64,000 bases of DNA, taken from positions 15,583 through 79,582 of the forward strand of contig JAUYPI010000015.1 in NCBI GenBank assembly GCA_030697645.1, read 5' to 3'. The notes under the pieces were generated by a model that was not told the DNA's origin, searched no databases, and worked only from the letters and a program-made list of their open reading frames with translations. Each line of letters starts with the position of its first letter. Within the stretch, counting starts at the first letter, position 1. The position numbers and the translations under genes are program-made. This DNA comes from a bacterium. Lineage in GTDB: Bacteria > Patescibacteriota > Minisyncoccia > Phycocordibacterales > VMGT01. Below are positions 1,262 through 64,000 of the stretch, piece by piece.

Positions 1262-1446
1262 TGGTGTTACGGTCGGGAGCCTAAGGCTCCTCGCCCAAAT
1301 AACTTTACGAACCTCGCGCTCACTGCGCATTCACCTGCGGCTCGTGCTCAATCACGAAATCCTCGTCGTACAACCAGTACGCCTACGGTTTCGTTCATTG
1401 CGCGCCAAGCCACATCTGAACGCACATTGAACACGAGTTCCGCAAA

Positions 1447-2052
1447 TTATTTTGGCGAGGAGCCTAAGGTCTTGAGCGCCGCCTTGATCCTCTCGCTCGT
1501 GTCTGCGGTGCTTGGCGGCATTTTTTTGAGTGCTTCCCGTGCCTCACGGGCGCTGTAGCCGAGGGTGGTGAGGGCGTCAATGACATCGCCGTAGTCCTCG
1601 CCCGCGCTATCCGCCTCGCGTGCGCTTGCGAGCGAGTCGCGGAGTTCGAGCACGATTTTTTGGGCCGTCTTTTTGCCGATGCCGGAGACCTTGGTGAGGT
1701 AGGAAGTGTCGCCGCGCGCAATCGCGCTCCGCAGGGTCTCGACCGGCGCGAGGTCGAGGATCGCAAGAGCGGATTTTGGCCCGATGCCGGAGACCGATAT
1801 GAGCCGCTCGAAGAGCGAGAGTTCGTCGCGCTCACGGAAGCCGAAGAGCTCGAGCGCGTCATCTCGCACCACAAGGTGCGTCCAGAGGGAGACCTCGCCG
1901 CGCGCGGCGCCGTGCCCTGCGCTCCCTGGTGCGGGACGGAGTGCCGCGCGCGCGTCGGCGCCCACGCGCACGCGGTAGCCGACGCCATGAACGTCGAGAA
2001 TAATGGCGTGATCCTCAACGAGGACAATCGAGCCGGTGAGTCGACCAATCAT
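1447..2052 (-). CDS. ruvA: Holliday junction DNA helicase subunit RuvA
   Basis: The 201-aa product has an N-terminal OB-like domain (MIGRLTGSIV...GVGYRV), two HhH motifs (SGIGPKSA, VSGIGKKTAQKI) and a C-terminal domain, which is the canonical RuvA layout. Confidence 0.9.
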   Translation of the reverse strand: MIGRLTGSIVLVEDHAIILDVHGVGYRVRVGADARAALRPAPGSAGHGAARGEVSLWTHLVVRDDALELFGFRERDELSLFERLISVSGIGPKSALAILDLAPVETLRSAIARGDTSYLTKVSGIGKKTAQKIVLELRDSLASAREADSAGEDYGDVIDALTTLGYSAREAREALKKMPPSTADTSERIKAALKTLGSSPK

Positions 2053-6616: not shown

Positions 6617-6733
6617 CTCAAAAATTTTCAATTATCAATTTTATAATTTTTAATCAATTTTCAATTACTCAATTTTCAAACACGACGTCGTCCGTTATTG
6701 AAAATTGAAAATTGTAAATTGAAAATTATCACC
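6617..6733. repeat. Hairpin-array element (arm AATTTTCAAT / ATTGAAAATT, core CAAACACGACGTCGTCCGTT)
   Basis: Fills the whole pilM-pilN intergenic region and ends 3 nt before the ATG at 6734. The core contains the palindrome ACGACGTCGT. Confidence 0.8.
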
Positions 6734-13773: not shown

Positions 13774-13900
13774 AAGTCAATTTCCAATTTCCAAATTTTC
13801 AAATCTCAAACACGGAAAACGTTCGGGTTTGGAAATTGGAGCTTTGAGATTTGGAGATTGTTTGGAAATTGTAAATTTGGAACTTGGAAATTCGAGTCTT
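13774..13900. repeat. Hairpin-array element (arm ATTTCCAA / TTGGAAAT, core CAAACACGGAAAACGTTCGGGTTTGG)
   Basis: caatttccaatttccaaattttcaaatctcaaacacg...cgggtttggaaattggagctttgagatttggagattgtttggaaattgtaaatttggaacttggaaatt. Ends 6 nt before the secF ATG at 13901. Confidence 0.75.
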
Positions 13901-20582: not shown

Positions 20583-20764
20583 AGCTAGGCGGTGTCTTCA
20601 AGGCATGCGCGCGAGAGTTCTTTGACAACAGAATAAGCATACACACAAGACAAAGCAAAAACAAAACGTCTATTCCTTAAAAAAACAGAGAGCAGAAGAA
20701 GTTGTTCCTTCTTTTGTTCCGTCCACAAATAGGGAGGTTGGAGATACTCCAACTTCTATAATTT

Positions 20765-20803
<39 letters not shown>

Positions 20804-20851
20804 GATAAGGCATGCAAGTCATACGGGCCGCACCTCATTGCATTCGGTGCG

Positions 20852-20990
20852 GAATTTTCAATTTTCAATTTTACAATTTTCAAATAATTTCCAATGATTA
20901 AATTTCCAATTTCCAAACACGACGTCGTCGGCGTTTGAAAATTGACCCATTGAAAATTTATTGAAAATTGAAAATTGATAATTGAAAATT
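20852..20990. repeat. Hairpin-array element (AATTTTCAAT family) inserted in the 16S V1 helix
   Basis: Same arm unit and core (caaacacgacgtcgtcggcgtt) as the pil intergenic copies. Flanked by hairpins ccgcacctcattgcattcggtgcgg and gccgcaccgagtgtggcgaggtgcggc. Confidence 0.8.
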
Positions 20991-21190
20991 CCGCCGCACC
21001 GAGTGTGGCGAGGTGCGGCTAGTGGCGAACGAGGCAGTAATACGCAGGAACGTACCCTGGAGACGGGCATAACCAGCCGAAAGGTTGGCTAATTCCCGAT
21101 GGTCCGAGCACATATTTTTGGAGAAAAACAAAAGGCGCATCCTGTACCTGTATAGATACTTTGGATGCGCCCTGCAACATTGAGCGGTTT

Positions 21191-21310
21191 CTAGAGGAAC
21201 AGGAAAGTAGCAATCATTACGGCGATGATACCGACTAAGACCCAAGACATCCAACGAAGCTGACTTGGGCCATAGTCTATTCTTCCGCTCTGTCCTCTCG
21301 CGATTTTCAT
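21191..21310 (-). CDS. Candidate 39-aa single-TM peptide antisense to the 16S V2 insertion
   Basis: aggaggTCGTCatg SD-ATG, then MKIARGQSGRIDYGPSQLRWMSWVLVGIIAVMIATFLFL. It is below the 60-aa cut-off of the ORF track. Coordinates are approximate to a few nt. Confidence 0.3.
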   Translation of the reverse strand: MKIARGQSGRIDYGPSQLRWMSWVLVGIIAVMIATFLFL

Positions 21311-22157
21311 GACGACCTCCTTTTTCGCTGAAGAAAGAAAAGCATAGGGGTCTATATATTGTCAAGTATCTTACTTGGCTTCCAAAAATATGTGCTCGGT
21401 AAAGGAGCAATCTGCTCCGGGAGCGGCCTGCGGGCTATCAGCTAGTTGGTGGGGTAACGGCCTACCAAGGCTCTGACGGCTAGGGGGGGTGAGAGCCCGA
21501 TCCCCGCCGATGACACTGCGACACGGGTCATACACCTACGGGTGGCAGCAGCCGAGAATATTCGACAATGGGCGAAAGCCTGATCGAGCGACGCCGCGTG
21601 GTGGATGAAGCACTTCGGTGCGTAAACACCTTTTATGAGGGAAGAAGTTCGCCGCACCTCATTGCATTCGGTGCGGACATTTCGATATATCGAAATTTCG
21701 AAATATCGAAATGTCCGCCGCACCGAGTGCAGCGAGGTGCGGCGGATTGACGGTACCTCATGAATAAGGGGCTCCTAATCACGTGCCAGCAGGAGCGGTA
21801 ATACGTGAGCCCCAAGCGTTATCCGGAATCACTGGGCGTAAAGGGTGTGTAGGCGGCCGCGTTAGTCCTCCGTTAAATCCCACGGCTCAACCGTGGAGCT
21901 GCGGAGGATACGGCGCGGCTTGAGGGCGCGAGAGGTGTGCGGAACTCACGGTGTAGGGGTGAAATCCGTTGATATCGTGGGGAACACCAAAAGCGAAGGC
22001 AGCACACTGGCGCGCCCCTGACGCTGAAACACGAAAGCGTGGGTAGCGAAGCAGATTAGATACCTGCGTAGTCCACGCCCTAAACTCTGTCCGCTAGCTT
22101 TTCGGAGTATCGACCCTCTGGGAGGCGAAGCTAACGCGTTAAGCGGACCGCCTGGGA

Positions 22158-22189
<32 letters not shown>

Positions 22190-22722
22190 AGACGGGGACC
22201 AGCACAAGCGGTGGATCATGTGGTTCAATTCGATGGTAAACGAAGAACCTCACCAGGGCTTGAAATCCAGATGAACTCGCCTCGAAAGGGGTGCGGCCTT
22301 CACAAGAGGCATCTGGACAGGTGCTGCATGGTTGTCGTCAGTTCGTGGCTTAAGTTGTTCCCTTTAGTGGGGTAACGAACGCAACCCCCGTCGCCTGTTA
22401 TACGTGTCAGGCGAGACTGCCCAGCCCAAAGTGCGGCTCACTTCGGTTCGCCGCAGAATCAAGAAGTATGAAGTATGAAGTATGGAAATGTACGAAGAAA
22501 AACCATAATTCATGATTCATAATTCTTGCTTCTGCATCGAGCGGAGCGAGATGCATTTCGGGCTGGGAGGAAGGCGGGGATGACGCCAAATCAGCATGGC
22601 CCTCTGACGCCCTGGGCTACACACGTGATACAATGGCCGGTACAACGGGTCGCGACGGGGTAACCCTGAGCCAATCCTTATAAAGCCGGCCTCAGTTCGG
22701 ATTGAGGTCTGCAACTCGACCT

Positions 22723-22757
<35 letters not shown>

Positions 22758-23610
22758 TATACTGCGGTGAATACGTTCTCTGGTCTTGTACTCACCGCCC
22801 GTCATGCTAAGGGAGCCGGGAATACCCGAAACCCCGCCCTTTGCTCGCGGAGCAAAGGGCGGGATATATCGAAATTTTGAAATATCGATATGTCCCGCCC
22901 TTTGTTCACTTCGTGAACAAAGGGCGGGGTTACGGTAAGCTCGGTGACAGGAGCAAAGTCGTTGAGACATACTGTCTTGTTGCGACCTATGTGAGCGATC
23001 ACATAGTAAAACCCAACTGATATCGGTGAACCCCAGCGTACACAATTCACAATTTCTAATTTCAATTTTGAATTAGTCATTGAGAATTCGTAGTTGCGCC
23101 AGCTGGGCAATACCGAGGGAAGCCCACTAGGAGCTAGTTTTTTAACTGGTAACTAGTTGCGGCCCCGTAGAGACTTCCTGCACTTTTCTAGAAGTAGAAG
23201 GCGCAGGGGATGGCGTTGAAAAATTCACGCTATAAAACGTTGGCCCCAGCCGTAAAGTTTCCTAAAGAAACATTACGGCTGGGTGAAGATATAGTCCGTG
23301 CCTCAATGTAAATTGAGGGTAACACATGAACAAGGCACCGGTAGCGGAAGCTGTTGGTGGAATCATTCCTAGATCCCGTCCCAAGGCGCGTAAAGCGCGC
23401 CATGTTTAAATATTTAAATGTTTAAACATGGCCAAAATTCGCTTTGCGAATTTTGGCGAGGACTGATCAGGTCGGTCCGAGGGTGGAAGTTTTTCTTCCA
23501 TTCCTCGGAATCATGCTGTGGCTGTCAGCTAAACCAGCTAGCGGAGTTAGATGCAAATTTAGCTTCCAACCGTGGACGGAACAAAAGAGGGAACAAAAAA
23601 CACTCAAAAA

Positions 23611-30974: not shown

Positions 30975-31191
30975 GCCAAGCGGAAAACGCAAAACGAAAA
31001 ACAACAGTGCAAAGCGCAAAAAATTTCCAATTTCCAAAAAACAATTTCCAAACGAATCTCAAATCTCAAGTTCCAAATCACAAACGTTCGTGTTTGGAAC
31101 TTGAACTTTGAATCATTGGAATTTGTTTGGAGCTTGTTTTTTGGAGCTTGAAATTTTATTCTGTTGTTTTGCGCTTTTCGTTTTGCGCTGC
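30975..31191. repeat. Composite hairpin-array element (outer GCAAAACGAAAA / inner ATTTCCAA, core CAAACGTTCGTGTTTGG)
   Basis: Same nested architecture as 8740..8927 and 54286..54520. Ends at the ATG (31194) of the next gene. Confidence 0.75.
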
Positions 31192-43962: not shown

Positions 43963-44225
43963 GGACATTTGACCATTGACATTTGACCTCGAACCCGCCG
44001 TCGTAGTATCAAAGGTCAAATGTTACATGTCAAATGTCATCGTAATCACTCACACCCGTCATTGCGAGCGGAGCGAAGCAATCCAGTTGTTGAGGCATAA
44101 TTCTGGATTGCCTCGTCGCTCCACTCCGTTCCGCTCCTCGCAATGACGGCTCTGTTACGCAAGATCGTGGTGAGTGTGAGCGGTTACTGTCTGTCAAATG
44201 TCAAAGGTCAATTGTTACCTGTTAC
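43963..44225. repeat. Long nested imperfect palindrome (about 260 nt)
   Basis: Outer arms acatttgaccattgacatttgacc / ggtcaaatgttacatgtcaaatgtc ... tgtcaaatgtcaaaggtcaattg. Inner arms cactcacacccgtcattgcgagcggagcgaagcaatccag / ctggattgcctcgtcgctccactccgttccgctcctcgcaatgacgg...ggtgagtgtgag. Confidence 0.7.
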
Positions 44226-44749: not shown

Positions 44750-45107
44750 TCCTTCCTGTTGTGTTGTTTGTGCCATGCGAACAACTGCCCTGCTGCCTTC
44801 GGCTGCAGGGCAATCGTTTTTCGTGAACGTATGAATTCCGTAAACAGGAGCGTATGCGGTTGTACGGAGAGAGTCATTTTGCGAAGATTGACGAAGTTGC
44901 AGCCAAAAATCAAAAATCGCAGCAGGAAGGGATTTCGAAAGAAGTCTATTGTGGAAGAACCAAAAAATGGCGCCAGAGGGCGCCGTTTTTTTTTGTGGTG
45001 AATTATCCACACGAGAGTTCAAAAACGCTTGTATTGATTGGTTTTTTCTGCTAGTATGATTCAGGGGAGGCCGGAGTGCTTTTGAATAAGCCAAGCCGGT
45101 ATTTTTT

Positions 45108-48100
45108 ATGGTAAAAAAGGTGGCACAAAAAAAGGCAAAGAAAGCCGTACAAAAACGTGCGGGAAAAATGAAAACGGCAAAGCCGGGGAATGGCTACGGC
45201 GCCGATCAGATCCAGGTGCTCGAGGGCCTCGAGCCGGTGCGCCGCAGGCCCGGCATGTACATCGGCACGACCGGGCCCGACGGCCTGCATCATCTGGTCG
45301 TCGAGGTGTTTGACAACTCGCGCGACGAGGCGATGGCGGGCTTTGGCGGCGACATCGAGCTTGCGCTTCTCCCGGGTAACCGCGTGCGCGTTGTGGACAA
45401 CGGCCGCGGCATTCCGGTGGAACGCCATCCGCAGACCAAAGTTTCGACACTTGAAACCGTGATGACGACGCTCCATGCGGGAGGCAAGTTCGGCTCCGGC
45501 GGCTACACGGTGAGCGGCGGGCTCCATGGCGTCGGCGTCTCGGTCGTGAACGCGCTCTCGGAGCGGCTCCGCGCCGAGGTGCACCGCGACGGCAGCGCTC
45601 ACGCGCAGGAGTACCGCCGCGGCGAGCCGCTCGCGGCGGCGAAGCGCATCGGCGCGTCGGAGCGCACTGGCACTATCATTACCTTCGAGCCGGACGCAAC
45701 CGTATTTAAAGACGGCATCAGTTTTGACTGGAAGCGCATCGTGGACCACATGCGCCAACAGGCGTACCTCGTGAAAGGAATGCGTATTACGCTCCTTGAT
45801 GCGCGCGCGTATGAGGGGAAGTTCGATGACCAAAAAGTGTTCTACCTGCGTGATCTCGGGCTCGATCTCCCCTCGACGTCGTTTTACTTTGAAGGTGGCC
45901 TGCTCTCGCTCGTACGGTTTTACAATCAGTCGGAGAAGCCGGTGCACAAGAGCATTTTTTATATTGAAAAAGAAGCGCGCGCGCTCGGCGTCGAGTCTGT
46001 GGAAATTGCGTTTCAGTACGTGGACGATATCTCGTACCGCATCCTCGCGTTTGCGAATAATACGTTCAACGGCGAGGGCGGCACACATCTTACCGGCTTC
46101 AAGGGCTCGCTCACTCGCACGCTGAATAGCTACGCGCGCGCGAACAATCTTCTCAAGGAGAAAGACGAAAATTTCACCGGCGAGGACGTGCTCGAGGGGC
46201 TCACCGCGGTGATTAGCGTGAAGCTCCGCGAGATACAGTTTGAAGGGCAGACGAAGGCAAAGCTCGGCTCAGTCGAGGCGCGTACGGCGCTTGAGGGCGT
46301 GATGAACGAGGCGCTTTCGAATTTTCTTGAGGAGAATCCGGACGAAGCGCGCGCGATCATCGGCAAAGTTTCGCTTGCGATGCGGGCGCGGAAAGCCGCG
46401 AAAGCCGCAAAAGACAGCGTGCTCCGCAAAGGCGCGCTCGAGGGCATGACGCTTCCGGGCAAGCTCGCCGACTGTCAGAGCAAAAAGCGCGAGGAGACGG
46501 AACTTTTCGTGGTGGAAGGCGACAGCGCCGGAGGATGTTGGAGTGGAGATACAAAGGTGGCGTTAGCTGACGGACGACATCTTAGCTTTTTAGAGTTGGT
46601 TAAAGAGCATGAGGAAGGCAAGCAGAATTTTTGTTACACCATGCAGGAAAACGGACATATCGGTTTAGCACCAATCGAAAGTCCGAGACGGACGAAACAA
46701 AATGCCGACGTGATTAAGGTGACTCTCGACACAGGCGATGACCTTCTTTGTACCCCCGACCACCTCTTTCGACTCGTGGACGGTAGTTACATTCCTGCGT
46801 ACAACCTAACGTCAAGCCACAGTTTAGCGCCCCTGTATCGCAAAATATCAAAAAAGGGAGAAGGAACACAACTGAACGGGTACGAGATGGTTTTTGACCC
46901 TCAAGCACATAAATGGATGCCAACCCATATTCTTGCTGATATATATAATTTGAAAAAAAACGTCTATGTAACAACTGATGGTAACCACCGGCATCATTTT
47001 GATTTTAATAAGAGGAATAATAATCCGACGAACATTAAACGAGTAACGTATGAGCAGCACATGGCGTACCACCATGCCTACATAGAAAGGACGTTACATC
47101 GTCCTGATGTTAAGCAGAAATCTATTGACTCAAAACGTATCGCGGAGTTTCGTGAACGTGCGAGGGCAAAGTCGCTCGAAAAGCGCGAGCTTTTTAGTGA
47201 GAATGCAAAACGACAGTGGCAGGATGAGGACTATAAGACGTATATGGTCCAAAAATTTCTCGATTACTATTCGAGTAACGAATCGTATCGTAAGCGCAAT
47301 AACGCTCTGCTCGATAAAGCGCAGCGTGAATATTGGAGCGATAACGAAAATCGTCGTGTGCAGTCCGATCGCGTGCGTGTGTTTTTCGAAGCACATCCGG
47401 AACGGAAAGCGTGGTTGTCGCGAGAAGCGAAGCGGCAATGGGACAGCGAATCGCTGCGCGCATGGCGGGGTGAGACAACGCGCCTACAATGGACTCCGGC
47501 GTTTCGTGAAAAACGTCGGGAGGCGTACAACGAGACCTATCTACGTAAGGCGCTCGGTGTCTTGCATGAGCTCTACGCGGAAAACGGCACCATCGATTAT
47601 GCGCGCTATAACGCGCTTCGCAGAGAACGAAATGACCGGAGCATTATTCGCCACGACACAATATGCGAGCGATTTTTTGACGGCGACATGGGACGTATGG
47701 AGGAGGCAGTGGTGAATTATAACCACCGCATCGTAAGGATTGAGCGGCTTGAGGAGCCGATGGATGTTTATGATCTTGAGGTCCCCGGCACGCACAACTT
47801 CGCGCTTGCATCGGGCGTGTTCGTCCACAATAGCGCAAAAATGGCGCGGGACCGGGTAACACAGGCGATTCTGCCGCTCTTCGGCAAGGTGCTCAATGCC
47901 GAGCGCGCGCGGCTTGATAAAATTTTGGCATCGGACAAATTCCGCGCGCTTGTGATCGCGCTCGGCACGGGGATCGGCGAGGGGGTTGATCTCGAGAAGC
48001 TCCGCTACGGCCGCATCATCATCATGGCCGATGCGGACGTTGACGGGTCGCACATCAAGACGCTCTACCTTACCTTTTTTTATCGCCAGCTGCGCGACAT

Positions 48101-48575
48101 TATCGAGCGCGGGCACCTCTACATCGCCGTGCCGCCGCTCTATAAAATTACGCGAGGCAAAGAGGCGCACTACGTGTTTACCGATGACGAGAAGGCGGCG
48201 TATCTCAAAAAACTCGGCGTTGCGATTGATGACGTCTCGGAGCTTGAAGAGGAAGGGGAGGATGGAGAAGGGGATGCGGCTGCGGGCGGCGAGGCACCCG
48301 GAGGCGGAGAGCGCGAGGCAGGAGGAAGCGCGGAAGAGGGAAAACCGAAGAAAACCCCAAAGGTCTCGGTCCAGCGCTACAAGGGCCTCGGCGAGATGAG
48401 CGCGGACGAGCTCTGGGAGACCACGATGGACCCGGCGAGCCGCCTGCTTCACCATGTGATGATCGAGGATGCCGCCGAGGCGGACAAAGTCTTTGACATC
48501 CTCATGGGCACCGATGTTCCGGCGCGCAAAAGTTTTATCCAGAGCAACGCGAAATTGGCGAATCTTGATATATAG
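45108..48575 (+). CDS. gyrB: DNA gyrase subunit B, interrupted by an intein
   Basis: GHKL ATPase N-terminus, then LFVVEGDSAGG | intein | SAKMARDRVTQAILPLFGKVLN, and the Toprim and C-terminal domains (IIIMADADVDGSHI...YKGLGEMS). Has a Lys-rich N-terminal extension. Confidence 0.9.
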   Translation: MVKKVAQKKAKKAVQKRAGKMKTAKPGNGYGADQIQVLEGLEPVRRRPGMYIGTTGPDGLHHLVVEVFDNSRDEAMAGFGGDIELALLPGNRVRVVDNGRGIPVERHPQTKVSTLETVMTTLHAGGKFGSGGYTVSGGLHGVGVSVVNALSERLRAEVHRDGSAHAQEYRRGEPLAAAKRIGASERTGTIITFEPDATVFKDGISFDWKRIVDHMRQQAYLVKGMRITLLDARAYEGKFDDQKVFYLRDLGLDLPSTSFYFEGGLLSLVRFYNQSEKPVHKSIFYIEKEARALGVESVEIAFQYVDDISYRILAFANNTFNGEGGTHLTGFKGSLTRTLNSYARANNLLKEKDENFTGEDVLEGLTAVISVKLREIQFEGQTKAKLGSVEARTALEGVMNEALSNFLEENPDEARAIIGKVSLAMRARKAAKAAKDSVLRKGALEGMTLPGKLADCQSKKREETELFVVEGDSAGGCWSGDTKVALADGRHLSFLELVKEHEEGKQNFCYTMQENGHIGLAPIESPRRTKQNADVIKVTLDTGDDLLCTPDHLFRLVDGSYIPAYNLTSSHSLAPLYRKISKKGEGTQLNGYEMVFDPQAHKWMPTHILADIYNLKKNVYVTTDGNHRHHFDFNKRNNNPTNIKRVTYEQHMAYHHAYIERTLHRPDVKQKSIDSKRIAEFRERARAKSLEKRELFSENAKRQWQDEDYKTYMVQKFLDYYSSNESYRKRNNALLDKAQREYWSDNENRRVQSDRVRVFFEAHPERKAWLSREAKRQWDSESLRAWRGETTRLQWTPAFREKRREAYNETYLRKALGVLHELYAENGTIDYARYNALRRERNDRSIIRHDTICERFFDGDMGRMEEAVVNYNHRIVRIERLEEPMDVYDLEVPGTHNFALASGVFVHNSAKMARDRVTQAILPLFGKVLNAERARLDKILASDKFRALVIALGTGIGEGVDLEKLRYGRIIIMADADVDGSHIKTLYLTFFYRQLRDIIERGHLYIAVPPLYKITRGKEAHYVFTDDEKAAYLKKLGVAIDDVSELEEEGEDGEGDAAAGGEAPGGGEREAGGSAEEGKPKKTPKVSVQRYKGLGEMSADELWETTMDPASRLLHHVMIEDAAEADKVFDILMGTDVPARKSFIQSNAKLANLDI
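46536..47831 (+). mobile_element. Intein in GyrB (432 aa) with no recognisable LAGLIDADG/HNH block
   Basis: Starts C-W-S-G-D-T-K-V (block A) and ends VFVHN followed by extein Ser. The middle carries KRQW/REYW-type tandem repeats. Its first ~550 nt are markedly more AT-rich than the flanking gyrB. Confidence 0.8.
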
Positions 48576-51795: not shown

Positions 51796-51917
51796 AAACG
51801 TCAACGTCCAAAAAAGCCTGCAAAGTCAAAAGTCAAAACGCAAAAGTCAAAGCCACAGCCTAAAAGTCAAAAGTTTTAAGGTTTTGAGTTGTGGTTTTGA
51901 CTTTTGATTTTTGAGCT
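51796..51917. repeat. Hairpin-array element (arm AAAGTCAAA / TTTGACTTT variant)
   Basis: ctgcaaagtcaaaagtcaaaacgcaaaagtcaaagcc ... gttttgagttgtggttttgacttttgatttttgagctttgacttt. Ends at the map ATG (51918). Confidence 0.7.
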
Positions 51918-52697
51918 TTGACTTTCATGTCTCTCATCAAAACTCCAGAGGAAATCGCCCTCATGCGCGCTGCTGGTAAGCGGCTTGCATTCGTGTTGCA
52001 CGAGGTCACTACTGCAGCGCTGCCGGGGGTTTCCGCGCGCGAGCTCGACTCCTCTGCGGAGCGTCTGATCCGCGCAGGCGGCGATCGGCCTGCATTTCTC
52101 GACTATACACCCGGCGGTGCGCGACGGCCGTACCCGGCGACGCTTTGTGTTTCCGTGAACGACGAAGTCGTGCACGGCATTCCGAACGAGCGCGAGAAAA
52201 TACTCCGCGAGGGCGACATCGTCGGTTTCGATCTCGGGCTTGAACACGGGGGATTTTTCGCCGACATGGCGGTGACGATCGGCGTCGGCGGGATTGACGA
52301 GCCGGGCCGACGGCTCATCGAGGCGACGCGTGGCGCGCTTGATGCGGGGATCGCCGTAGCGCGCGCAGGCAGCCACATTGGCGACATAGGTTTCGCTGTC
52401 GCGCGGTTCGTGCGTAAAGGTGGTTTTGGCCTCGTGACGGAGCTCGGTGGACACTCGATCGGCCGCTCTCTCCACGAACTCCCGTTCGTGCCAAACAGTG
52501 CGACGCGCGGCTCAGGCGCTCTACTTGCGAGCGGCATGACGATCTGTATTGAGCCGATGCTCTGTGAGGGAAGTGGCGCAGTACGGCTTGATTCGGACGG
52601 CTACACCTTCCGTACCCGAGACGGCCGCCGCAGCGCGCACTTTGAGCACACGATATTGATCACTGATGGAGGGGCGGAGATACTCACAGCGCCGTGA
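51918..52697 (+). CDS. map: Methionine aminopeptidase type I
   Basis: MSLIKTPEEIALMRAAGK start and metal-ligand blocks (VVHGIPN, DIVGFD, GHSIGRSLHE, FTIEP, HFEHT). Confidence 0.85.
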   Translation: MTFMSLIKTPEEIALMRAAGKRLAFVLHEVTTAALPGVSARELDSSAERLIRAGGDRPAFLDYTPGGARRPYPATLCVSVNDEVVHGIPNEREKILREGDIVGFDLGLEHGGFFADMAVTIGVGGIDEPGRRLIEATRGALDAGIAVARAGSHIGDIGFAVARFVRKGGFGLVTELGGHSIGRSLHELPFVPNSATRGSGALLASGMTICIEPMLCEGSGAVRLDSDGYTFRTRDGRRSAHFEHTILITDGGAEILTAP

Positions 52698-58233: not shown

Positions 58234-59393
58234 AATTCTCGGAAATCAAATGTCGGCGTGGTCACACACTGCGCGGTATCGATTATACAAAGGGCAGTAC
58301 AGGTGAGTTGGCCGCCGATGAAACCTTCGCTCTGGCAGGTCGAGGGACCGAAATCTTCAGTGTCGCACTTCTCGGCGAGTTGCCGGATGGCATCCCCACA
58401 CTGGTAAACAAAGAGTGTGACAGGCGCGGTTGCCTCACCGTCCCGGCTATCTCGAATGGTGTAGGTGAAGGTTTCTTCGGGGAGGCTAAAAAATCTGGGG
58501 CTTGCACTTGGTGTGTAGCGGAGTAAGGCACCGCCGCTGATTATGGTAACGGTGCCGTTTGCGGGTTGTGTTACCGACACGATGGTGATGGGGTCGCCGT
58601 CCGGATCGGAGTCCGGGGTTGGGGGTTGCGCTCCGCAGTTTGCAAGTACGTCGAGGTCTGTGGAAAGCGCGACAATGCTTTCATTTGCGAAGCAGTTATC
58701 CGCCACGGCGACGGGCGGATCGTTGAACGTATCGTTGAACGTGACGTCGGTAAACTCGATCCAGCCCGGGCCGCCATCTATGGAGCCATTGCCGTCCGTA
58801 TCGTCGCCTCCCCACGCAAACCCCTGGATTTTGCCGCCGCGCACCTCGAGCACTTCGACGGTGACGCCATGATTGTTTGAGCCCGTGCAGCCGCCCGGTT
58901 CTGACAAGCAATTGAGACTGATCCATCCGTCCCAACCGCCGCCGAAGGAGAGCGCCCGCGCCCAGCCGGTAATGGCGCCGGTGACTCTGTTTGCGCGCGC
59001 CTCACAGGGCGCGAGCGGGCAGCCGGGCTGTGGGTTGAAGTCAATCCAGCCGATGCCTGCAGGCGAGGGGCCCGGGTCGCCTGTTCCTCCCCATGCGTAG
59101 CCGGAGAGAACGTCGGTATTGATGTCAAGGTGCACGCCGTAATTGGTGCTTGCGCAGACGAACGGATCATTCGTGCAGTTGAAGCTGATCCAGCCGAAGC
59201 CGCCGTCAACGACGTCGTCGTTATCATCATCCGCTTCGCTCCATGCCCAACCCGTGAGGTTGTGCGTGCTGTCGGCGTGGGTGAGGGGCAGCAGCGATGT
59301 GTGGAAAAATAGCAGCGCAAGCGCGGCGAGCGCGAGAGGGATGATGATGAAGCCGACGCGCATGCGAAATTTCATACCTCTATAATAGCGCAT
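58230..59393 (-). CDS. Secreted repeat protein
   Basis: Signal anchor and four G-x-A-W...G-W-I-x-F-N-C repeats. A DPDGDPITIVSVTQPANGTVTI segment resembles the C-terminal domain of the 23903 and 25712 proteins. C-terminal Cys-rich tail CGDAIRQLAEKCDTEDFGPSTCQSEGFIGGQLTC. Converges on and overlaps 54613..58233 by 4 nt. Confidence 0.45.
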   Translation of the reverse strand: MRYYRGMKFRMRVGFIIIPLALAALALLFFHTSLLPLTHADSTHNLTGWAWSEADDDNDDVVDGGFGWISFNCTNDPFVCASTNYGVHLDINTDVLSGYAWGGTGDPGPSPAGIGWIDFNPQPGCPLAPCEARANRVTGAITGWARALSFGGGWDGWISLNCLSEPGGCTGSNNHGVTVEVLEVRGGKIQGFAWGGDDTDGNGSIDGGPGWIEFTDVTFNDTFNDPPVAVADNCFANESIVALSTDLDVLANCGAQPPTPDSDPDGDPITIVSVTQPANGTVTIISGGALLRYTPSASPRFFSLPEETFTYTIRDSRDGEATAPVTLFVYQCGDAIRQLAEKCDTEDFGPSTCQSEGFIGGQLTCTALCIIDTAQCVTTPTFDFREF

Positions 59394-59435
59394 GACGAGA
59401 GCGTCGCGGTGGAGTTATCCACACCACTTAAATTT

Positions 59436-59760
59436 TCAAATTATCAATTTTCAATTTCCAATCAATTTTCCAATGACACAATTTTCAAACACGACGTCGT
59501 TCGTCATTGAAATATTAGACCTCTCCAGAAAGTCATTTCTACTGCAATTTTTGGTTTTCGGCTGCGACTTCGTCAGACGTCGCAAAATGATTCTCGCCGT
59601 ACATCCAGTACGCCGTCGAATCATTTTGCTCGTCTTCCTCGTCTCGCTCGAAAACCAAAAATTTCGTCGCGAAATGACTTTTTGGAGAGGTCTATTGAAA
59701 ATTCATTGAAAATTGATAATTGGAAATTGAAAATTATGAGTCCGTTTTGGTGATTATGAT
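59436..59760. repeat. Hairpin-array element (AATTTTCAAT family) carrying a 190-nt internal palindromic cargo
   Basis: Arms and core caaacacgacgtcgttcgtcattgaaat, then a nested palindrome gacctctccagaaagtcatttc...ttttggttttcg...cgaaaaccaaaaa...gaaatgacttttggagaggtc, then attgaaaattcattgaaaattgataattggaaattgaaaatt. Confidence 0.75.
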
Positions 59761-59811
59761 AAAATTTTACAGATTTGAGATTTGAGTTTAATACGGTGTT
59801 ATACTAACCGC

Positions 59812-62679
59812 ATGGATCTTTCTCCCAACCGGACTCTCGAGCGGCGTTCTGAGAGGCATGAGGACGAGCTCTCGGAGCTTCGAGTGCGTCTTGCCCAGGC
59901 TGAGCTCGCGGCTGAGCGCGCGCGCGGGGAGCGGCTGTCTCACGAGACCCGGGAGCGCCTCGCGAGCGAGGAACTTACAAGACACCGCGAGGAGCAAGAG
60001 GCGCACGGCGCGGCGAGCCCGGCCGAGACGGCGGCGATCGTGCTTGACCTCGCGCCGGAGAGTCATGATAGTCAGGTCGGGCTCCTCCTTGGCGTCGCAC
60101 GAGATCAGAGTGTCGGCGTGGCGCTTTCCGCCGCGCACAAGCTCGGCAATCCCCACATCGAGGACGATTTTCACCGCGCGCTCGTCGAGTATATCCGCGA
60201 GGGCTATCCCGCCGAGGGAGTGCGCGAGCGGGATCGGCTTTGGAAAGTGCTCCACATGACGCTCTACGAGATTCTCTTGCCGGAATTGCCGCAGGGAGGC
60301 GAGGCGCGCGAGCGCGGTCTCAAAGGGGTGCTCTCTTCGATGGAGCAGTTTTACTCCGGGATGCGCTCGCTTGCCGAGGGAGCGCGGGGAGGGGACATAT
60401 ACGCGCTCGAACTTGCGCTCCCAAACGTCGGGGACGAGGTGAGCTTCTACGTCGCGGTGCCGAGCGCGCGGCGCGACCTCTTTGAAAAGCAGCTGCTTGC
60501 CGTCTTCCCGCGCGCCGAGATCATTCCGCAGCACAACGACTACAACATTTTCAATGAGCGCGGAGCGCATGCGGCGGTGGTCGCGGCGTTTGGTGCGCGG
60601 CCGGCCTTGCCGCTCCGGCTTTACGAGAGCTTCGACTATGATCCTCTCAATGTCATCGCGAATGCGTTTTCAAAAATAGAACGCGCGGGCGAGGGCGCGG
60701 CGCTTCAGTTCCTGGTTCGCCCCTCGGGCGGCGAGCGCTACCAGCGGCACTTTCGCACCATACTGAAGAACGTGCGTGAAGGGATGCTGCTCGCGGAAGC
60801 GCTCGAAACCCCGGAGAGCATACTTGGCGAGTTCGCGGCGAGCGTGCGGGATTTTGTTTTCCAGCGAAAAAAATCGAAACGCGAGGAAGAAGACAGAAAA
60901 CAAAAACCGCCGAGCGTAGACCAGGCAGGAGTGGAACTCCTCGAGCGCAAGGTGGCGACTCCTCTCGTCGAGGCCGCAATCCGCATCGTCGCGTCGGCTG
61001 GAGACGAGCCCCGGGCCCGGGCGATCCTCGACGAACTTGTCGCCGCGTTCCACCAGTTTGAGGACCCGCAGGGGAACCGCCTGCGCTTCTCTCGTCTCTC
61101 GCGCGGCGCGCTCTCTGCCGGCCTTCGCTCCTTCAGTTTTCGCGAGACCGGCGCCGCACCTCTGCTCCCGCTCTCGCTCCGCGAGCTCACTACGCTCTTT
61201 CATTTCCCGGTCGCAGGAGAGCTCGCGACGCCGCAGGTGAGGTTCTCACGCGCTCGAGCCGGCGCGGCGCCCGCGCTCGCCTCGTTTAGAGATACATCCC
61301 GAGCGGTGAGCGCCCCTGCCGCGGCAAGCTCCGCTTATAGCGATCGCGTCGTACGCGACGCGACTTCGGGTGCGACGAGCGCAGCTCGGCAGAGCGAGGG
61401 GGTGGCGCTCGGCGTGAACCGCTTTCGTGGCGCCGAGACTCGCGTCTCGATCGCGCCGGAGGACCGGTTGCGGCATCTCTATGTGATCGGCCAGACCGGG
61501 ACGGGCAAGTCGACGCTCCTGCGGAACATGATCGTCGAGGACATCGCCGCGGGCGAAGGCGTGTGCATGATAGATCCGCACGGCTCGGATGTCGCGGAAG
61601 TGCTTGCGGCCGTGCCGCGCGAGCGCTACGGTGACGTGATTTACTTTGACCCGGGCTATAGCGCGCGTCCGATGGCGCTCAATATGCTCGAGTATGACTC
61701 GAGGCACCCGGAGCAAAAAACGTTCGTCGTGAACGAGCTCCTCGGCATTTTCCGCAAGCTCTTCGGCGCAGTCCCCGAGTCGATGGGGCCAGCGTTCGAG
61801 CAGTACTTCCGCAACAGTGCGCTTCTCGTGATGGAGGATCCCGCCTCCGGCAACACCCTCGTTGATGTCGCGCGCGTCTTATCCGACAAGCGTTTTCGCG
61901 AGCGGAAACTCGCGCAGAACCGCAACCCCCTCATCGCGCAGTTCTGGGAGAATGCCGAGCGCACGACCGGCGAGCAGGCGCTCGCGAACTTCGCGCAGTA
62001 CGTGACCAACAAGTTCGACGTCTTCCTCTCGAATGACGTCATGCGTCCGATCATCGCGCAGCAGCATTCGGCGTTTTCGTTCCGCGACGTGATGGACGGG
62101 CGGAAAGTGCTGCTCGTCAATCTCGCTAAGGGGCGGCTCGGGGATATCAACGCGCACCTCATCGGGCTTGTTCTCGTGGGGAAAATCTTGATGGCTGCGC
62201 TCTCGCGGGTTGACACCCCCGGGCTCGCGCTCCCGCCGTTTTACCTCTATCTTGACGAGTTTCAAAACATTACGACCGACTCGATTGCGGTGATCCTCTC
62301 CGAGGCGCGCAAGTACGGCCTCGGACTCACGATCGCGCACCAGTTTATCGGCCAGCTCTCGGAGAACATCCGCGACGCGGTCTTCGGCAATGTCGGTTCA
62401 CTCGTCGCGTTCCGCGTCGGCGCGGACGACGCCGAGGTGCTCGAGAAGCAGTTCGCGCCGGACTTCCGGGCGCACGACCTGATGAATATCGAAAACCGAA
62501 ACGCGTACGTGCGCCTGCTCTCGCACGGCCGTCCGACGAAGCCTTTCACGATTGAGACTGAGCCGCCGGAGAGCGGCGAGCCACTACAGGTTGAAGACTT
62601 GAAGCTCCGGTCTTATACCCGCTACGGCCGTCCGCGGGAGGAAGTGGAGAACGAAATCTTAGAGCGATATCGAGCGTAA
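59812..62679 (+). CDS. VirD4/TraG/TraD-like coupling-protein-type ATPase with a ~450-aa N-terminal domain of unknown function
   Basis: Walker A YVIGQTGTGKSTLLRNM, Walker B FYLYLDEFQN, then SEARKYGLGLTIAHQFIGQL...GNVGSLVAFRVGADDAE, which matches the T4SS coupling-protein C-terminal region (ARKYG...QS.SQL). No N-terminal TM segments. The family assignment is from memory, not a search. Confidence 0.55.
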   Translation: MDLSPNRTLERRSERHEDELSELRVRLAQAELAAERARGERLSHETRERLASEELTRHREEQEAHGAASPAETAAIVLDLAPESHDSQVGLLLGVARDQSVGVALSAAHKLGNPHIEDDFHRALVEYIREGYPAEGVRERDRLWKVLHMTLYEILLPELPQGGEARERGLKGVLSSMEQFYSGMRSLAEGARGGDIYALELALPNVGDEVSFYVAVPSARRDLFEKQLLAVFPRAEIIPQHNDYNIFNERGAHAAVVAAFGARPALPLRLYESFDYDPLNVIANAFSKIERAGEGAALQFLVRPSGGERYQRHFRTILKNVREGMLLAEALETPESILGEFAASVRDFVFQRKKSKREEEDRKQKPPSVDQAGVELLERKVATPLVEAAIRIVASAGDEPRARAILDELVAAFHQFEDPQGNRLRFSRLSRGALSAGLRSFSFRETGAAPLLPLSLRELTTLFHFPVAGELATPQVRFSRARAGAAPALASFRDTSRAVSAPAAASSAYSDRVVRDATSGATSAARQSEGVALGVNRFRGAETRVSIAPEDRLRHLYVIGQTGTGKSTLLRNMIVEDIAAGEGVCMIDPHGSDVAEVLAAVPRERYGDVIYFDPGYSARPMALNMLEYDSRHPEQKTFVVNELLGIFRKLFGAVPESMGPAFEQYFRNSALLVMEDPASGNTLVDVARVLSDKRFRERKLAQNRNPLIAQFWENAERTTGEQALANFAQYVTNKFDVFLSNDVMRPIIAQQHSAFSFRDVMDGRKVLLVNLAKGRLGDINAHLIGLVLVGKILMAALSRVDTPGLALPPFYLYLDEFQNITTDSIAVILSEARKYGLGLTIAHQFIGQLSENIRDAVFGNVGSLVAFRVGADDAEVLEKQFAPDFRAHDLMNIENRNAYVRLLSHGRPTKPFTIETEPPESGEPLQVEDLKLRSYTRYGRPREEVENEILERYRA

Positions 62680-62682
62680 GAG

Positions 62683-62839
62683 CCTGTCCACTATCTTGCT
62701 TTCGAGATGAAATTTTCTGATTTTGAGCGAGACGAAGTCAAAAATTGCGAGGAATATCGAGATATTTCGAGAAATTTTTGACAAGTCGCAGCCAAAATCA
62801 GGAAATTTCAGGCCGGAATGAAGATAGTGGATAGGCTCT
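62683..62839. mobile_element. MITE-like element with 18-bp perfect terminal inverted repeats
   Basis: gagcctgtccactatctt ... aagatagtggataggctc flanking about 120 nt of AT-rich non-coding sequence with internal repeats (aaatttttgac / gtcaaaaattg). Confidence 0.55.
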
Positions 62840-62848
62840 AAGTGAAAT

Positions 62849-63046
62849 ATGACTCCGGAAAAACAGTACGAAAAGTTCGCCGAATGGTTCGAGCGCGCAG
62901 CGCTTGTCTTTCTCGCATCGTTGGTTGTGCAGCAGATTGTCTCTGGGGTATCGCCATGGAGCCGGTCGGTACTTTTAGGAATGATAGCGGCCGGAGCGCT
63001 CTACGCTGCGGCATATGGCCTTGTTCGTAAGAGTATGGTACGTTAA
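62849..63046 (+). CDS. Small hypothetical membrane protein (65 aa)
   Basis: Two hydrophobic helices (AALVFLASLVVQQIV, LLGMIAAGALYAAAYGL). Confidence 0.3.
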   Translation: MTPEKQYEKFAEWFERAALVFLASLVVQQIVSGVSPWSRSVLLGMIAAGALYAAAYGLVRKSMVR

Positions 63047-63050
63047 ATAT

Positions 63051-63149
63051 ATGGATGGTTTTACTGCCATATATATATTTGGCATAATTCTTGGCCTTGC
63101 TGGCTTGTACCTTGCGTATTGGCCTGAGAAAAAACACGGTCATCCGTAG
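63051..63149 (+). CDS. Candidate 32-aa single-TM peptide
   Basis: ATG at 63051: MDGFTAIYIFGIILGLAGLYLAYWPEKKHGHP. Below the ORF-track size cut-off. Lies between the previous small ORF and ndk. Confidence 0.2.
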   Translation: MDGFTAIYIFGIILGLAGLYLAYWPEKKHGHP

Positions 63150-63179
63150 ATCGTGGAGGGCGTTGCACGTTTCCCCATT

Positions 63180-63764
63180 ATGCAAAAACTCCGCGAAGAA
63201 CAAACGTTTCTCCTGATCAAGCCCGACGGCGTCCGCAAGGGGCTCGTCGGCGAGGTGCTGAAGCGCATCGAGCAGCGCGATCTCAAGATCGTCGCGCTGG
63301 AGATGTTTGCGGCCTCGCGTGAGCAGGTGGACGAGCACTACCCGAAGGACCCTGCGTGGGTGCGCCGCCTCGGCGAGAAGTCGCTCGCGACGTACCACAA
63401 GTACGGCATGGATGCTGCCGCCGAGCTCGGCACGGACGACCCCGACGAGATAGGTAAGATGGTGCGGCGCTGGCTCGTGGACTATATGGTCTCCGCACCG
63501 CTTGTGCGTATGGTTGTGCAGGGTATTCACGCGGTTGACATGGTGCGCAAGATTTGCGGGCCGACGATGCCCTACATCGCCGACATGGGGACAATCCGCG
63601 GCGATTTTTCCGCTGACTCTCCCGCGATTGCAAACAGCGAGAAGCGGGCGGTAATGAACCTCGTGCATGCCTCGGAGACTCCGGAGGAGGCGGCGCACGA
63701 GATCGGATTTTGGTTCGGCGACCGAAAGGCGTTTCAGTACAAACGCTTCGGCATTGATGAATGA
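63180..63764 (+). CDS. ndk: Nucleoside diphosphate kinase (long form)
   Basis: TFLLIKPDGVRKGLVGEVLKRIE and active-site N..H.S block (NLVHASETPEEAAHEIGFWF). Start taken at MQKLREEQ (63180). Confidence 0.75.
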   Translation: MQKLREEQTFLLIKPDGVRKGLVGEVLKRIEQRDLKIVALEMFAASREQVDEHYPKDPAWVRRLGEKSLATYHKYGMDAAAELGTDDPDEIGKMVRRWLVDYMVSAPLVRMVVQGIHAVDMVRKICGPTMPYIADMGTIRGDFSADSPAIANSEKRAVMNLVHASETPEEAAHEIGFWFGDRKAFQYKRFGIDE

Positions 63765-63829
63765 TGGGTAGGGAGGCGAGGGATTTTCAGGCAGTTCCCA
63801 GAGAGCGAGCAGCAGGATTTTTGAAGCAT

Positions 63830-64000
63830 GAATCATGAATTAAGAAGCATGGAGTCCGTTCCCACACTTCATGGTTCACGACCCATGATTCATACTTCAT
63901 GCTCCATACTGCATGACTGCACGTCCCATACTTCATACTTCTTGATTCATGCTTCACGTCCCATGATTCATGCTTCATGATCCATGCTTCAAGTCAGGCA
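63830..64000. repeat. Array of degenerate CATGATTCAT / CTTCATACTTCAT units running to the window edge
   Basis: catgaatcatgaattaagaagcatgg ... ccatgattcatacttcatgctccatactgcatgac ... ccatacttcatacttcttgattcatgcttc ... Same unit family as 22470..22540 and 35740..35772. Confidence 0.6.

Follow-up and report, generated by a model that had tools for sequence, protein, structure and literature searches.

A probable MITE-like palindromic repeat nested in a hairpin array of a CPR genome

The palindrome at positions 59516-59694 of the window (the whole 64,000-nt stretch of DNA analysed here) is probably a dispersed mobile repeat, MITE-like and palindromic over its whole length, that is nested in a second repeat, an AT-rich hairpin array. 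We file this element, here called the cargo, as a new family of a known kind (MITE-like) in a lineage in which such repeats are undescribed. An earlier note on this DNA had seen the arms and core of a hairpin array split by an internal palindrome with its own inner pair, and had offered as explanations either a second element inserted in the loop of the first or a structured ncRNA gene embedded in the repeat. The sequence is as that note described it and the stems are confirmed. Insertion of a second element is supported because seven copies of the array (the carrier) are without the insert, because removal of 177 nt restores their register, and because the cargo family occurs at unrelated loci. 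The insertion is not in the loop, however, but in the right arm, just after the core.

The carrier, the cargo, and the insertion site

The carrier with its insert (59426-59741, plus strand) is one AATTTTCAA hairpin-array copy split by the cargo. Its 5' part, a left arm of AATTTTCAA-type units (59426-59488, plus strand), is followed by the core ACACGACGTCGTTCGTC (59489-59505, plus strand), which is common to the carrier paralogues, and by the first right-arm unit, ATTGAAATAT, which ends at 59515 on the same strand. The rest of the right arm, made of TTGAAAATT-type units, was placed at 59695-59741 (plus strand) by repeat search and paralogue alignment. The unit AATTTTCAA occurs 55 times in the window, where 0.8 occurrences are expected, and eight carrier copies of 105 to 140 nt each share one architecture and core. 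Seven of the eight are uninterrupted (aligned copies at 6623, 7424, 8142, 11120, 12368, 20853, and 52730); the left arm and the first right-arm unit of the split copy align with them, and the 59.4-kb carrier minus the cargo aligns with them end to end. When 177 nt are deleted and one TA is kept, the junction reads ATTGAAATATTATTGAAAATTC, in the same 22-nt register as the ATTGAAAATTTATTGAAAATTG of the paralogues. Since the two match in length and register, the uninterrupted carriers carry a near-consensus target. A member of the carrier family with the core ACACGACAGCGTCG is present in another species, at an atpC-DUF4096 locus (L065), and is itself nested there in a GCGAAAA-type array.

The cargo measures 179 nt with both flanking TAs counted, rather than the 190 nt first reported, and the right arm of the palindrome as first quoted lacked one T. 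It reads GACCTCTCC...GGAGAGGTC between the two TAs and is identified by its fold, its copies, its covariation, and an nhmmer match of E 5e-56. We assign it to the minus strand, which is the 'standard' orientation of the family (GAGCGAGAC...GTCGCAGCC), defined as the better-folding strand in 12 of 12 copies; on the plus strand the palindrome at 59516-59694 reads TAGACCTCTCC...GGAGAGGTCTA. The outer arms found by repeat search are 43 nt long (59516-59558 and 59652-59694), and within them lie an exact inner pair of 15 nt (AATTTTTGGTTTTCG / CGAAAACCAAAAATT) and an exact apical pair of 12 nt (59582-59593 and 59618-59629). The predicted RNA fold reaches -92.7 kcal/mol on the plus strand (z -14.5) and -99.7 kcal/mol on the minus strand (z -12.8), and none of 200 shuffles was as stable. 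As DNA the cargo folds at -62.9 kcal/mol (z -12.5), and the composite of carrier and cargo folds at -131.5 kcal/mol (z -14.8). The only ORFs that overlap the cargo, 59392-59709 (plus strand) and 59451-59624 (minus strand), both run into the carrier. A small protein encoded in the cargo was rejected, since these ORFs are non-coding in composition and are not kept where the element stands in other contexts. With less than about 300 bp and no coding capacity, the cargo is in the size class of MITEs.

The terminal inverted repeats TAGACYTCT...AGARGTCTA are conserved in all 12 full cargo copies, and all 12 occupy the same target, (C)AA/TA..TA/AT, with element orientation relative to this asymmetric motif divided 6:6. 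The sister types described below have TAA, not TA, at both ends. The TA can be read as a duplication (element GAC...GTC) or as the outermost pair of the terminal repeat (element AGAC...GTCT), and the pre-insertion site is CAATAAT either way. Comparison with the paralogous carriers fits an insertion of 177 nt with one TA pre-existing, the TA being equally assignable to the terminal repeat; a filled/empty pair for the cargo alone was not found at an orthologous site.

These ends are consistent with a non-autonomous element that would have inserted at the TA of CAATAAT within the right arm of a AATTTTCAA array, presumably moved by a transposase that acts in trans and recognises the ends TA/GACYTCT. 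The TA or TAA flanks would point to a TA-cutting enzyme of the IS630/Tc1-mariner type or of the IS427/IS1031 type within the IS5 family. Elements of the IS630/Tc1-mariner group duplicate TA, and the IS427 and IS1031 groups of the IS5 family generate duplications of 2 to 4 bp, TA(A) or TNA; given the TA (or TAA) flanks, either class would fit, and the flanks of the cargo are compatible with an IS630/Tc1-mariner-derived MITE. We infer both the class of the transposase and the status of TA as a true target-site duplication. The full-length hairpin may also matter for mobility or persistence, whether as a folded single strand, as a cruciform, or through correction of one arm by the other.

A search of the window and about 0.3 Mb of related loci for unpaired or distant ends found no autonomous IS with matching ends; every terminal repeat end there pairs with another at about 180 nt. 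The DUF4096 protein (ORF1 of IS5-family elements) was considered as the partner IS and rejected, because its solo, atpC-linked homologues have no DDE part and mark it as a conserved relic. In L060 its ORF is found some 3 kb past the end of the window, and the sequence upstream of it reads TA followed by GACACTCT. The solo gene, of about 100 aa and 68 to 80% identity, occupies the same atpC-linked locus in L060 (7049-7360), L065 (2888-3184), and L067 (244-573), and its product, which corresponds to the N-terminal domain of IS5-family transposases, may have been domesticated for DNA binding. Contigs L035 and L067, which represent the L033-type genome, have a cargo-family insertion in the hairpin array just upstream of the DUF4096 gene.

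Dispersal, sister elements, and variation between genomes

Scanning metagenomes with a pattern specific to the cargo yielded 14 loci, and BLAST within those loci added further copies. At least 12 full-length cargo copies (11 distinct) and several partial ones were recovered in the four metagenomes Ga0114944, Ga0114945, Ga0137796, and Ga0209399, with unrelated flanks. Several of the further copies are at the ends of contigs, where a repeat that interrupts assemblies would be expected. Conservation of the cargo outside this strain, whose absence would have counted against the earlier note, was thus found, but in the form of a repeat family. Two different loci (L027:4845 and L034:2541) carry an identical element sequence, which suggests recent movement of the family. 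All 12 full copies are intergenic, in mixed orientation relative to neighbouring genes, and they frequently adjoin stop codons, as would fit a target that contains TAA in a genome rich in GC. A blastn search of a plasmid collection gave no match to the cargo. A scan of viral contigs with the terminal repeat gave 24 matches, all attributable to chance and without BLAST similarity to the element.

The window contains other members of this group. A sister element at 62677-62841 (plus strand), GAGCCTGTCC...GGATAGGCTC between two TAAs, folds at -85.3 kcal/mol (z -13.2) and matches the cargo profile with an nhmmer E of 1e-8; its internal orientation is opposite to that of the cargo, and the two have the mid-stem and the invariant loop in common. 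Five copies of this 62.7-kb type, with 89 to 94% identity and all with different flanks, came from a pattern scan of representative genomes and are present in the Parcubacteria group bacterium MAG Greene1014_15. The terminal TAA of the sister element is also the stop codon (62677-62679) of the ATPase gene described below. The genes beyond the element are a 65-aa ORF and ndk, both on the plus strand; a minus-strand ORF (62838-63836) considered as its convergent neighbour is spurious. A possible distant relative, a palindrome of about 185 nt at 1283-1466 (plus strand; GGCTCCTCGCC...GGCGAGGAGCC between two TAAs; fold -84.3 kcal/mol, z -8.5), has an apex, CGTACAACCAGTACG, that resembles the apex of the cargo, and a weak profile match (E 0.003). 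It supplies the last seven or so codons and the stop of the minus-strand ORF 1447-2052. The gene-end overlaps at 62677-62679 and 1447-1469 resemble MITE-ORF fusion.

A half copy of the cargo family (44851-44948, plus strand; profile positions 83-179, E 3.5e-23) lies between pheT and gyrB and ends in GTCTA/TTGT. Its truncation falls exactly at the hairpin apex, as would be expected after cleavage of a palindrome at the loop and subsequent repair. About 20 nt after it stands a hairpin that resembles an intrinsic terminator (GGCGCCAGAGGGCGCC, then T9).

A significant inverted repeat in the flanks surrounds the insertion in only three or four of the 12 cargo-type copies (dyad z of 8.6 for the window copy, 4.4 for L026, 4.6 for L028, and a marginal 2.7 for L027), and in none of seven copies of the other types (six of the 62.7-kb type and the window element at 1283-1466). 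Nesting of the cargo in dyad elements is recurrent, not obligatory, and the carrier is not needed. The role of the hairpin array as a carrier, as the earlier note had put it, is therefore incidental, with 8 of 12 family copies outside any dyad element. The simplest cause of nesting is that AT-rich arrays offer an AT-rich target in an otherwise GC-rich genome.

Across the window there are two palindromic layers, AT-rich arrays and GC-richer hairpin elements of 165 to 190 nt, which nest mutually, interrupt short-read assemblies, and lie at gene ends. Among the arrays is a nested pair at 30979-31189, in which the two halves of a GCGAAAACG-type array (30979-31007 and 31161-31189) enclose one of the AATTTCCAA type (31018-31160); further arrays with other units are present at 13779-13892, 43964-44038, 51822-51925, and 63811-63992. 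The 16S rRNA gene (20758-23009) has two insertions, 20826-21020 and 21650-21744, both bounded by one GC-rich inverted repeat of about 27 nt (GCCGCACCTCATTGCATTCGGTGCGG ... CCGCACCGAGTGyrGCGAGGTGCGGC). Inside the first is a complete AATTTTCAA carrier copy (20853-20990), inside the second a TTTCGAnAT-type hairpin array, and the two insertions look like a third nesting layer within the rRNA gene. A group I intron (Rfam RF00028, 51.8 bits) is present at 22954-23318, at the 3' end of the same gene. The 16S match spans 2252 nt compared with a model of 1533 positions, so the gene is heavily interrupted; such 16S rRNA genes occur in CPR bacteria.

The element site itself is intergenic, between two divergent genes and upstream of both likely promoters. 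The gene on the minus strand encodes a secreted Big_9/cadherin-like protein (ORF to 59393; likely start at 59375, which is the start called in L060 and is also kept in L033). The gene on the plus strand (ATG 59812 to 62679) encodes a VirD4-like or HerA-like P-loop ATPase of 955 aa, the label VirD4-like being acceptable from its weak but above-threshold Pfam matches (TrwB_AAD_bind, TraG-D_C, T4SS-DNA_transf, and DUF87). The cargo ends 118 nt upstream of its ATG, and the ATPase gene is flanked by two palindromic elements, the cargo upstream and the 62677-62841 sister element downstream. Homologues about 50% identical to this ATPase are found in hundreds of Parcubacteria/Paceibacterota assemblies; it is a conserved chromosomal Parcubacteria gene. 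The position of the cargo beside it is incidental, because the gene is conserved in the chromosome and orthologues are without the insert. An extended -10-like box, TGTTATACT, at 59797-59805 precedes the ATPase ATG, is conserved in L033, and is likely the promoter of this gene; TATTAT is a -10-like box before the Big_9 gene start (region 59373-59390). At both divergent genes (59797-59814 and 59373-59390) the boxes sit about 6 to 7 nt from the start codon, which suggests that both transcripts are leaderless. A motif resembling a DnaA box, TTATCCACA, has only two exact occurrences in the window, 59415-59423 upstream of the ATPase gene and 45003-45011 upstream of gyrB, both intergenic and each within about 100 nt of a cargo-family copy. 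We rejected it as a feature of the element, since the ATPase-side motif is kept in the cargo-less L033 (1602-1610) and so belongs to the locus. The window as a whole is housekeeping DNA, with pheS, pheT, gyrB, adk, ndk, map, sigma factors, and 16S rRNA; gyrB (45108-48575) is interrupted by an intein (Pfam Intein_splicing, residues 485-908).

The orthologous locus is available in L033 and L061, whose identity to the window is about 85% over the Big_9 gene, the ATPase gene, and ndk. In both, the AATTTTCAA carrier and the cargo are missing from the site of the element, and a different hairpin array, of AAAGTCAAAA units, lies there between the conserved flanks GTTATCCACA and TTTGAGATTTGAGTTTnATACGGTGnTATACT. 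This array (L061:1300-1405 and L033:1615-1715) is 91% identical to the one at window positions 51822-51928. The hairpin arrays are thus themselves dispersed families and behave as exchangeable ones, one intergenic site having different arrays in different genomes.

Conservation of the hairpin and alternative readings

RNAalifold on the 12 aligned full-length copies predicted 67 pairs, and 97.7% of cells are paired across the aligned copies. The covariation analysis proposed in the earlier note found strong compensatory change: both sides differ in 19 of the 67 pairs, compared with 10.1 +/- 1.8 in shuffles (none of 500 as high) and 1 to 4 in slid controls, although such counts overstate the independent events because the copies share ancestry. 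At least three versions of the outer stem occur, mutually compensated, and copy L024b is a left/right chimera that is correspondingly unstable. Two segments, GGCTGCGAC (59560-59568, plus strand) and its partner GTCTCGCTC (59641-59649, plus strand), form the two sides of an asymmetric loop and are invariant in 12 of 12 copies. The loop consists of a 1-nt bulge and a small 2x3 internal loop (GAGCGAGAC opposite GTCGCAGCC), invariant in the 12 copies and in the 62.7-kb type. The same strand folds better in all 12 copies, by 0.2 to 18 kcal/mol (7 to 18 in 11 of the 12). G-U pairs outnumber A-C by 29 to 12 when cells are counted, and by only 13 to 10 when columns are counted.

The cargo hairpin is thus maintained through compensatory changes around an invariant bulge and internal loop. 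Ordinary MITEs need no full-length covarying hairpin, and the structural conservation exceeds what a plain MITE model needs. The invariant asymmetric loop and the predicted one-strand folding preference hint at a single-strand role, as RNA or ssDNA, that the plain MITE model would leave unexplained.

One way to accommodate this is that the hairpin itself is the recombination substrate, its folded single strand, with extrahelical bases, serving as the target of an HUH/Y1 transposase or of an enzyme similar to integrases, so that the cargo would be a hairpin-dependent mobile element, comparable to IS200/IS605 ends or integron attC sites, and not a classical cut-and-paste MITE. Structure conserved over variable stem sequence around the invariant bulge and loop, the strand preference in folding, and the stability of the DNA fold all speak for such a substrate, and the asymmetric CAAT/AAT can be read as insertion 3' of a tetranucleotide without duplication. 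We nevertheless consider it quite unlikely, since insertion is orientation-specific in IS200/IS605 whereas the cargo copies divide evenly with respect to their target, since the ends contain no attC core sites (GTTRRRY / RYYYAAC), and since the 24 window ORFs scanned include no Y1, TnpB, or integrase gene.

Less likely still is a structured, possibly mobile ncRNA gene, in which the hairpin of about 180 nt would be transcribed as a regulator or an RNase III substrate. It would account for the compensatory covariation along the whole stem, for the invariant bulge and internal loop, and for the consistent folding strand with its excess of G-U over A-C cells, an excess that is smaller by columns. 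However, the Rfam scan proposed in the earlier note gave no match between 59350 and 59850 at E<=10 and, at gathering score, only rRNA, tRNA, and the group I intron across the window, and a consensus scan of 59300-59900 found two weak promoter-like sites where 1.0 is expected and no terminators, i.e., no signal above background. The orientation of the copies relative to neighbouring genes is mixed, the window copy has a divergent promoter on either side and is upstream of each, and the orthologous locus is without it. A distribution in many copies, all flanked by TA and at one specific target, is what a transposable repeat shows. The ncRNA gene suggested at the outset is therefore not borne out.

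It is very improbable that carrier and cargo are mobilised or lost together as a composite, with the hairpin array as vehicle. The appeal of this reading comes from L060 (GCA_034376905.1, JAXMIX010000052.1, a Patescibacteria group bacterium MAG), which is 99.9% identical to the window on both sides and is without 293 nt (window 59437-59729), almost exactly the carrier plus the cargo, so that it reads CCACTTAAATTTT directly followed by AAAATTATGAGTCC. The junction nevertheless falls inside an imperfect direct repeat, AAATTnnnAAATTAT, with the outermost bases of both arms retained, as slippage or an assembly or polymerase skip would leave them. For this reason we read L060 as a probable slippage deletion of the composite palindrome, or as such a skip, rather than as a naive empty site. 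In the same assembly the ATPase gene is also split, into ORFs of 235 and 700 aa. Against the composite, moreover, in Logan contig L021 (SRR13727529) the right arm is connected to the ATPase gene, only one such composite is known, seven carriers have no cargo, and 8 of 12 cargo copies have no dyad host. Presence/absence variation is thus seen for the cargo in L033/L061 and in L060, the carrier being missing too in both cases.

An oriT or other cis site for the adjacent VirD4-like coupling ATPase, suggested by the short distance to this gene and by the related palindrome that starts at its stop codon, is effectively refuted by the L033/L061 orthologues, which have neither palindrome, and is further opposed by the many unrelated loci of the family, the widespread ATPase homologues, the housekeeping setting (pheST, gyrB, adk, ndk, map, and 16S), and the fact that no relaxase was seen.

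Relation to known repeats and significance

A mobile repeat of the MITE-like kind has several counterparts. Bacterial MITEs are under 200 bp long and have terminal inverted repeats, 5'-TA-3' termini, a target-site duplication, and long stem-loops; among such repeats, RUP inserts preferentially into other mobile elements or IS elements, and YPAL targets sites in or beside regions of dyad symmetry (PMC2229807). The features of the cargo agree with this description of MITEs, its target-site duplication being putative. Like the cargo, RUP and the Correia/NEMIS elements of Neisseria are non-coding repeats of less than 200 bp with terminal inverted repeats, 5'-TA-3' ends, and TA-containing targets, and they are multi-copy, intergenic, and predicted to form long stem-loops. 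Compared by description, the cargo differs from them in being palindromic from end to end, its stems covarying and its asymmetric loop invariant, and also in that it is not AT-rich inside, has a CPR/Parcubacteria host, and has no known partner IS. RUP, in Streptococcus pneumoniae, is thought to be mobilised by IS630-Spn1.

The ERIC/IRU and YPAL/RU-2 repeats of enterobacteria and Yersinia resemble the cargo as imperfect palindromes of 127 to 168 bp that form long hairpins, and the dyad targets of YPAL recall the three or four nested insertions among the 12 copies of the cargo family. YPAL, however, has no TA termini and makes variable duplications of 3 to 26 bp, whereas the cargo family has the fixed target CAATAAT, and ERIC differs in its short terminal repeats of 7 bp. 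Elements derived from IS200/IS605 and integron attC sites are similar to the cargo in that a hairpin is kept while its sequence varies, in the conserved unpaired bases of the stem, and in a specific asymmetric target. These systems need only sub-terminal hairpins and no single element-long hairpin, and the cargo is unlike them in its random target orientation, in having no attC core motifs, and in having no Y1, TnpB, or integrase gene nearby. Assignment to either was rejected, to an attC site because the ends TAGACYTCT / AGARGTCTA contain no GTTRRRY, and to an IS200/IS605-type element because of the 6:6 target orientation and because no TnpA or TnpB gene is among the 24 window ORFs scanned. 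REP/BIME repeats (palindromes of 20 to 40 nt with a GTAG-type head, linked to RAYT) were likewise rejected, as the cargo has 179 nt and other ends, and no RAYT was found in the ORFs scanned. Full-length transcripts of the QMITE elements of Coxiella burnetii (e.g., QMITE2) are predicted to form a single very stable stem-loop (PMC10969869), a feature in common with the cargo. QMITE2, as described, has direct repeats of 7 to 9 bp and terminal repeats of 23 to 29 bp, unlike the cargo, and belongs to an unrelated lineage. A full-text search of the literature on MITEs in CPR/Patescibacteria found nothing relevant.

The mobile repeats of CPR/Patescibacteria genomes are almost undescribed, and once they are recognised they need no longer be annotated wrongly as ncRNA genes, oriT sites, or spurious ORFs. 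Such palindromic repeats also explain contig breaks and the 293-nt assembly discrepancy, and they can be used to mark variation among strains. The only feature that could point to a new mechanism is the strong compensatory evolution seen in a 'selfish' hairpin. It is conceivable, though unlikely, that the element-long hairpin is the functional unit, its folded single strand (DNA or RNA) being recognised by a CPR recombinase or an RNA-binding factor; if so, the family would represent a new class of mobile elements that depend on a hairpin, or else a regulatory RNA that is mobile, with a tendency to insert into other hairpin repeats.
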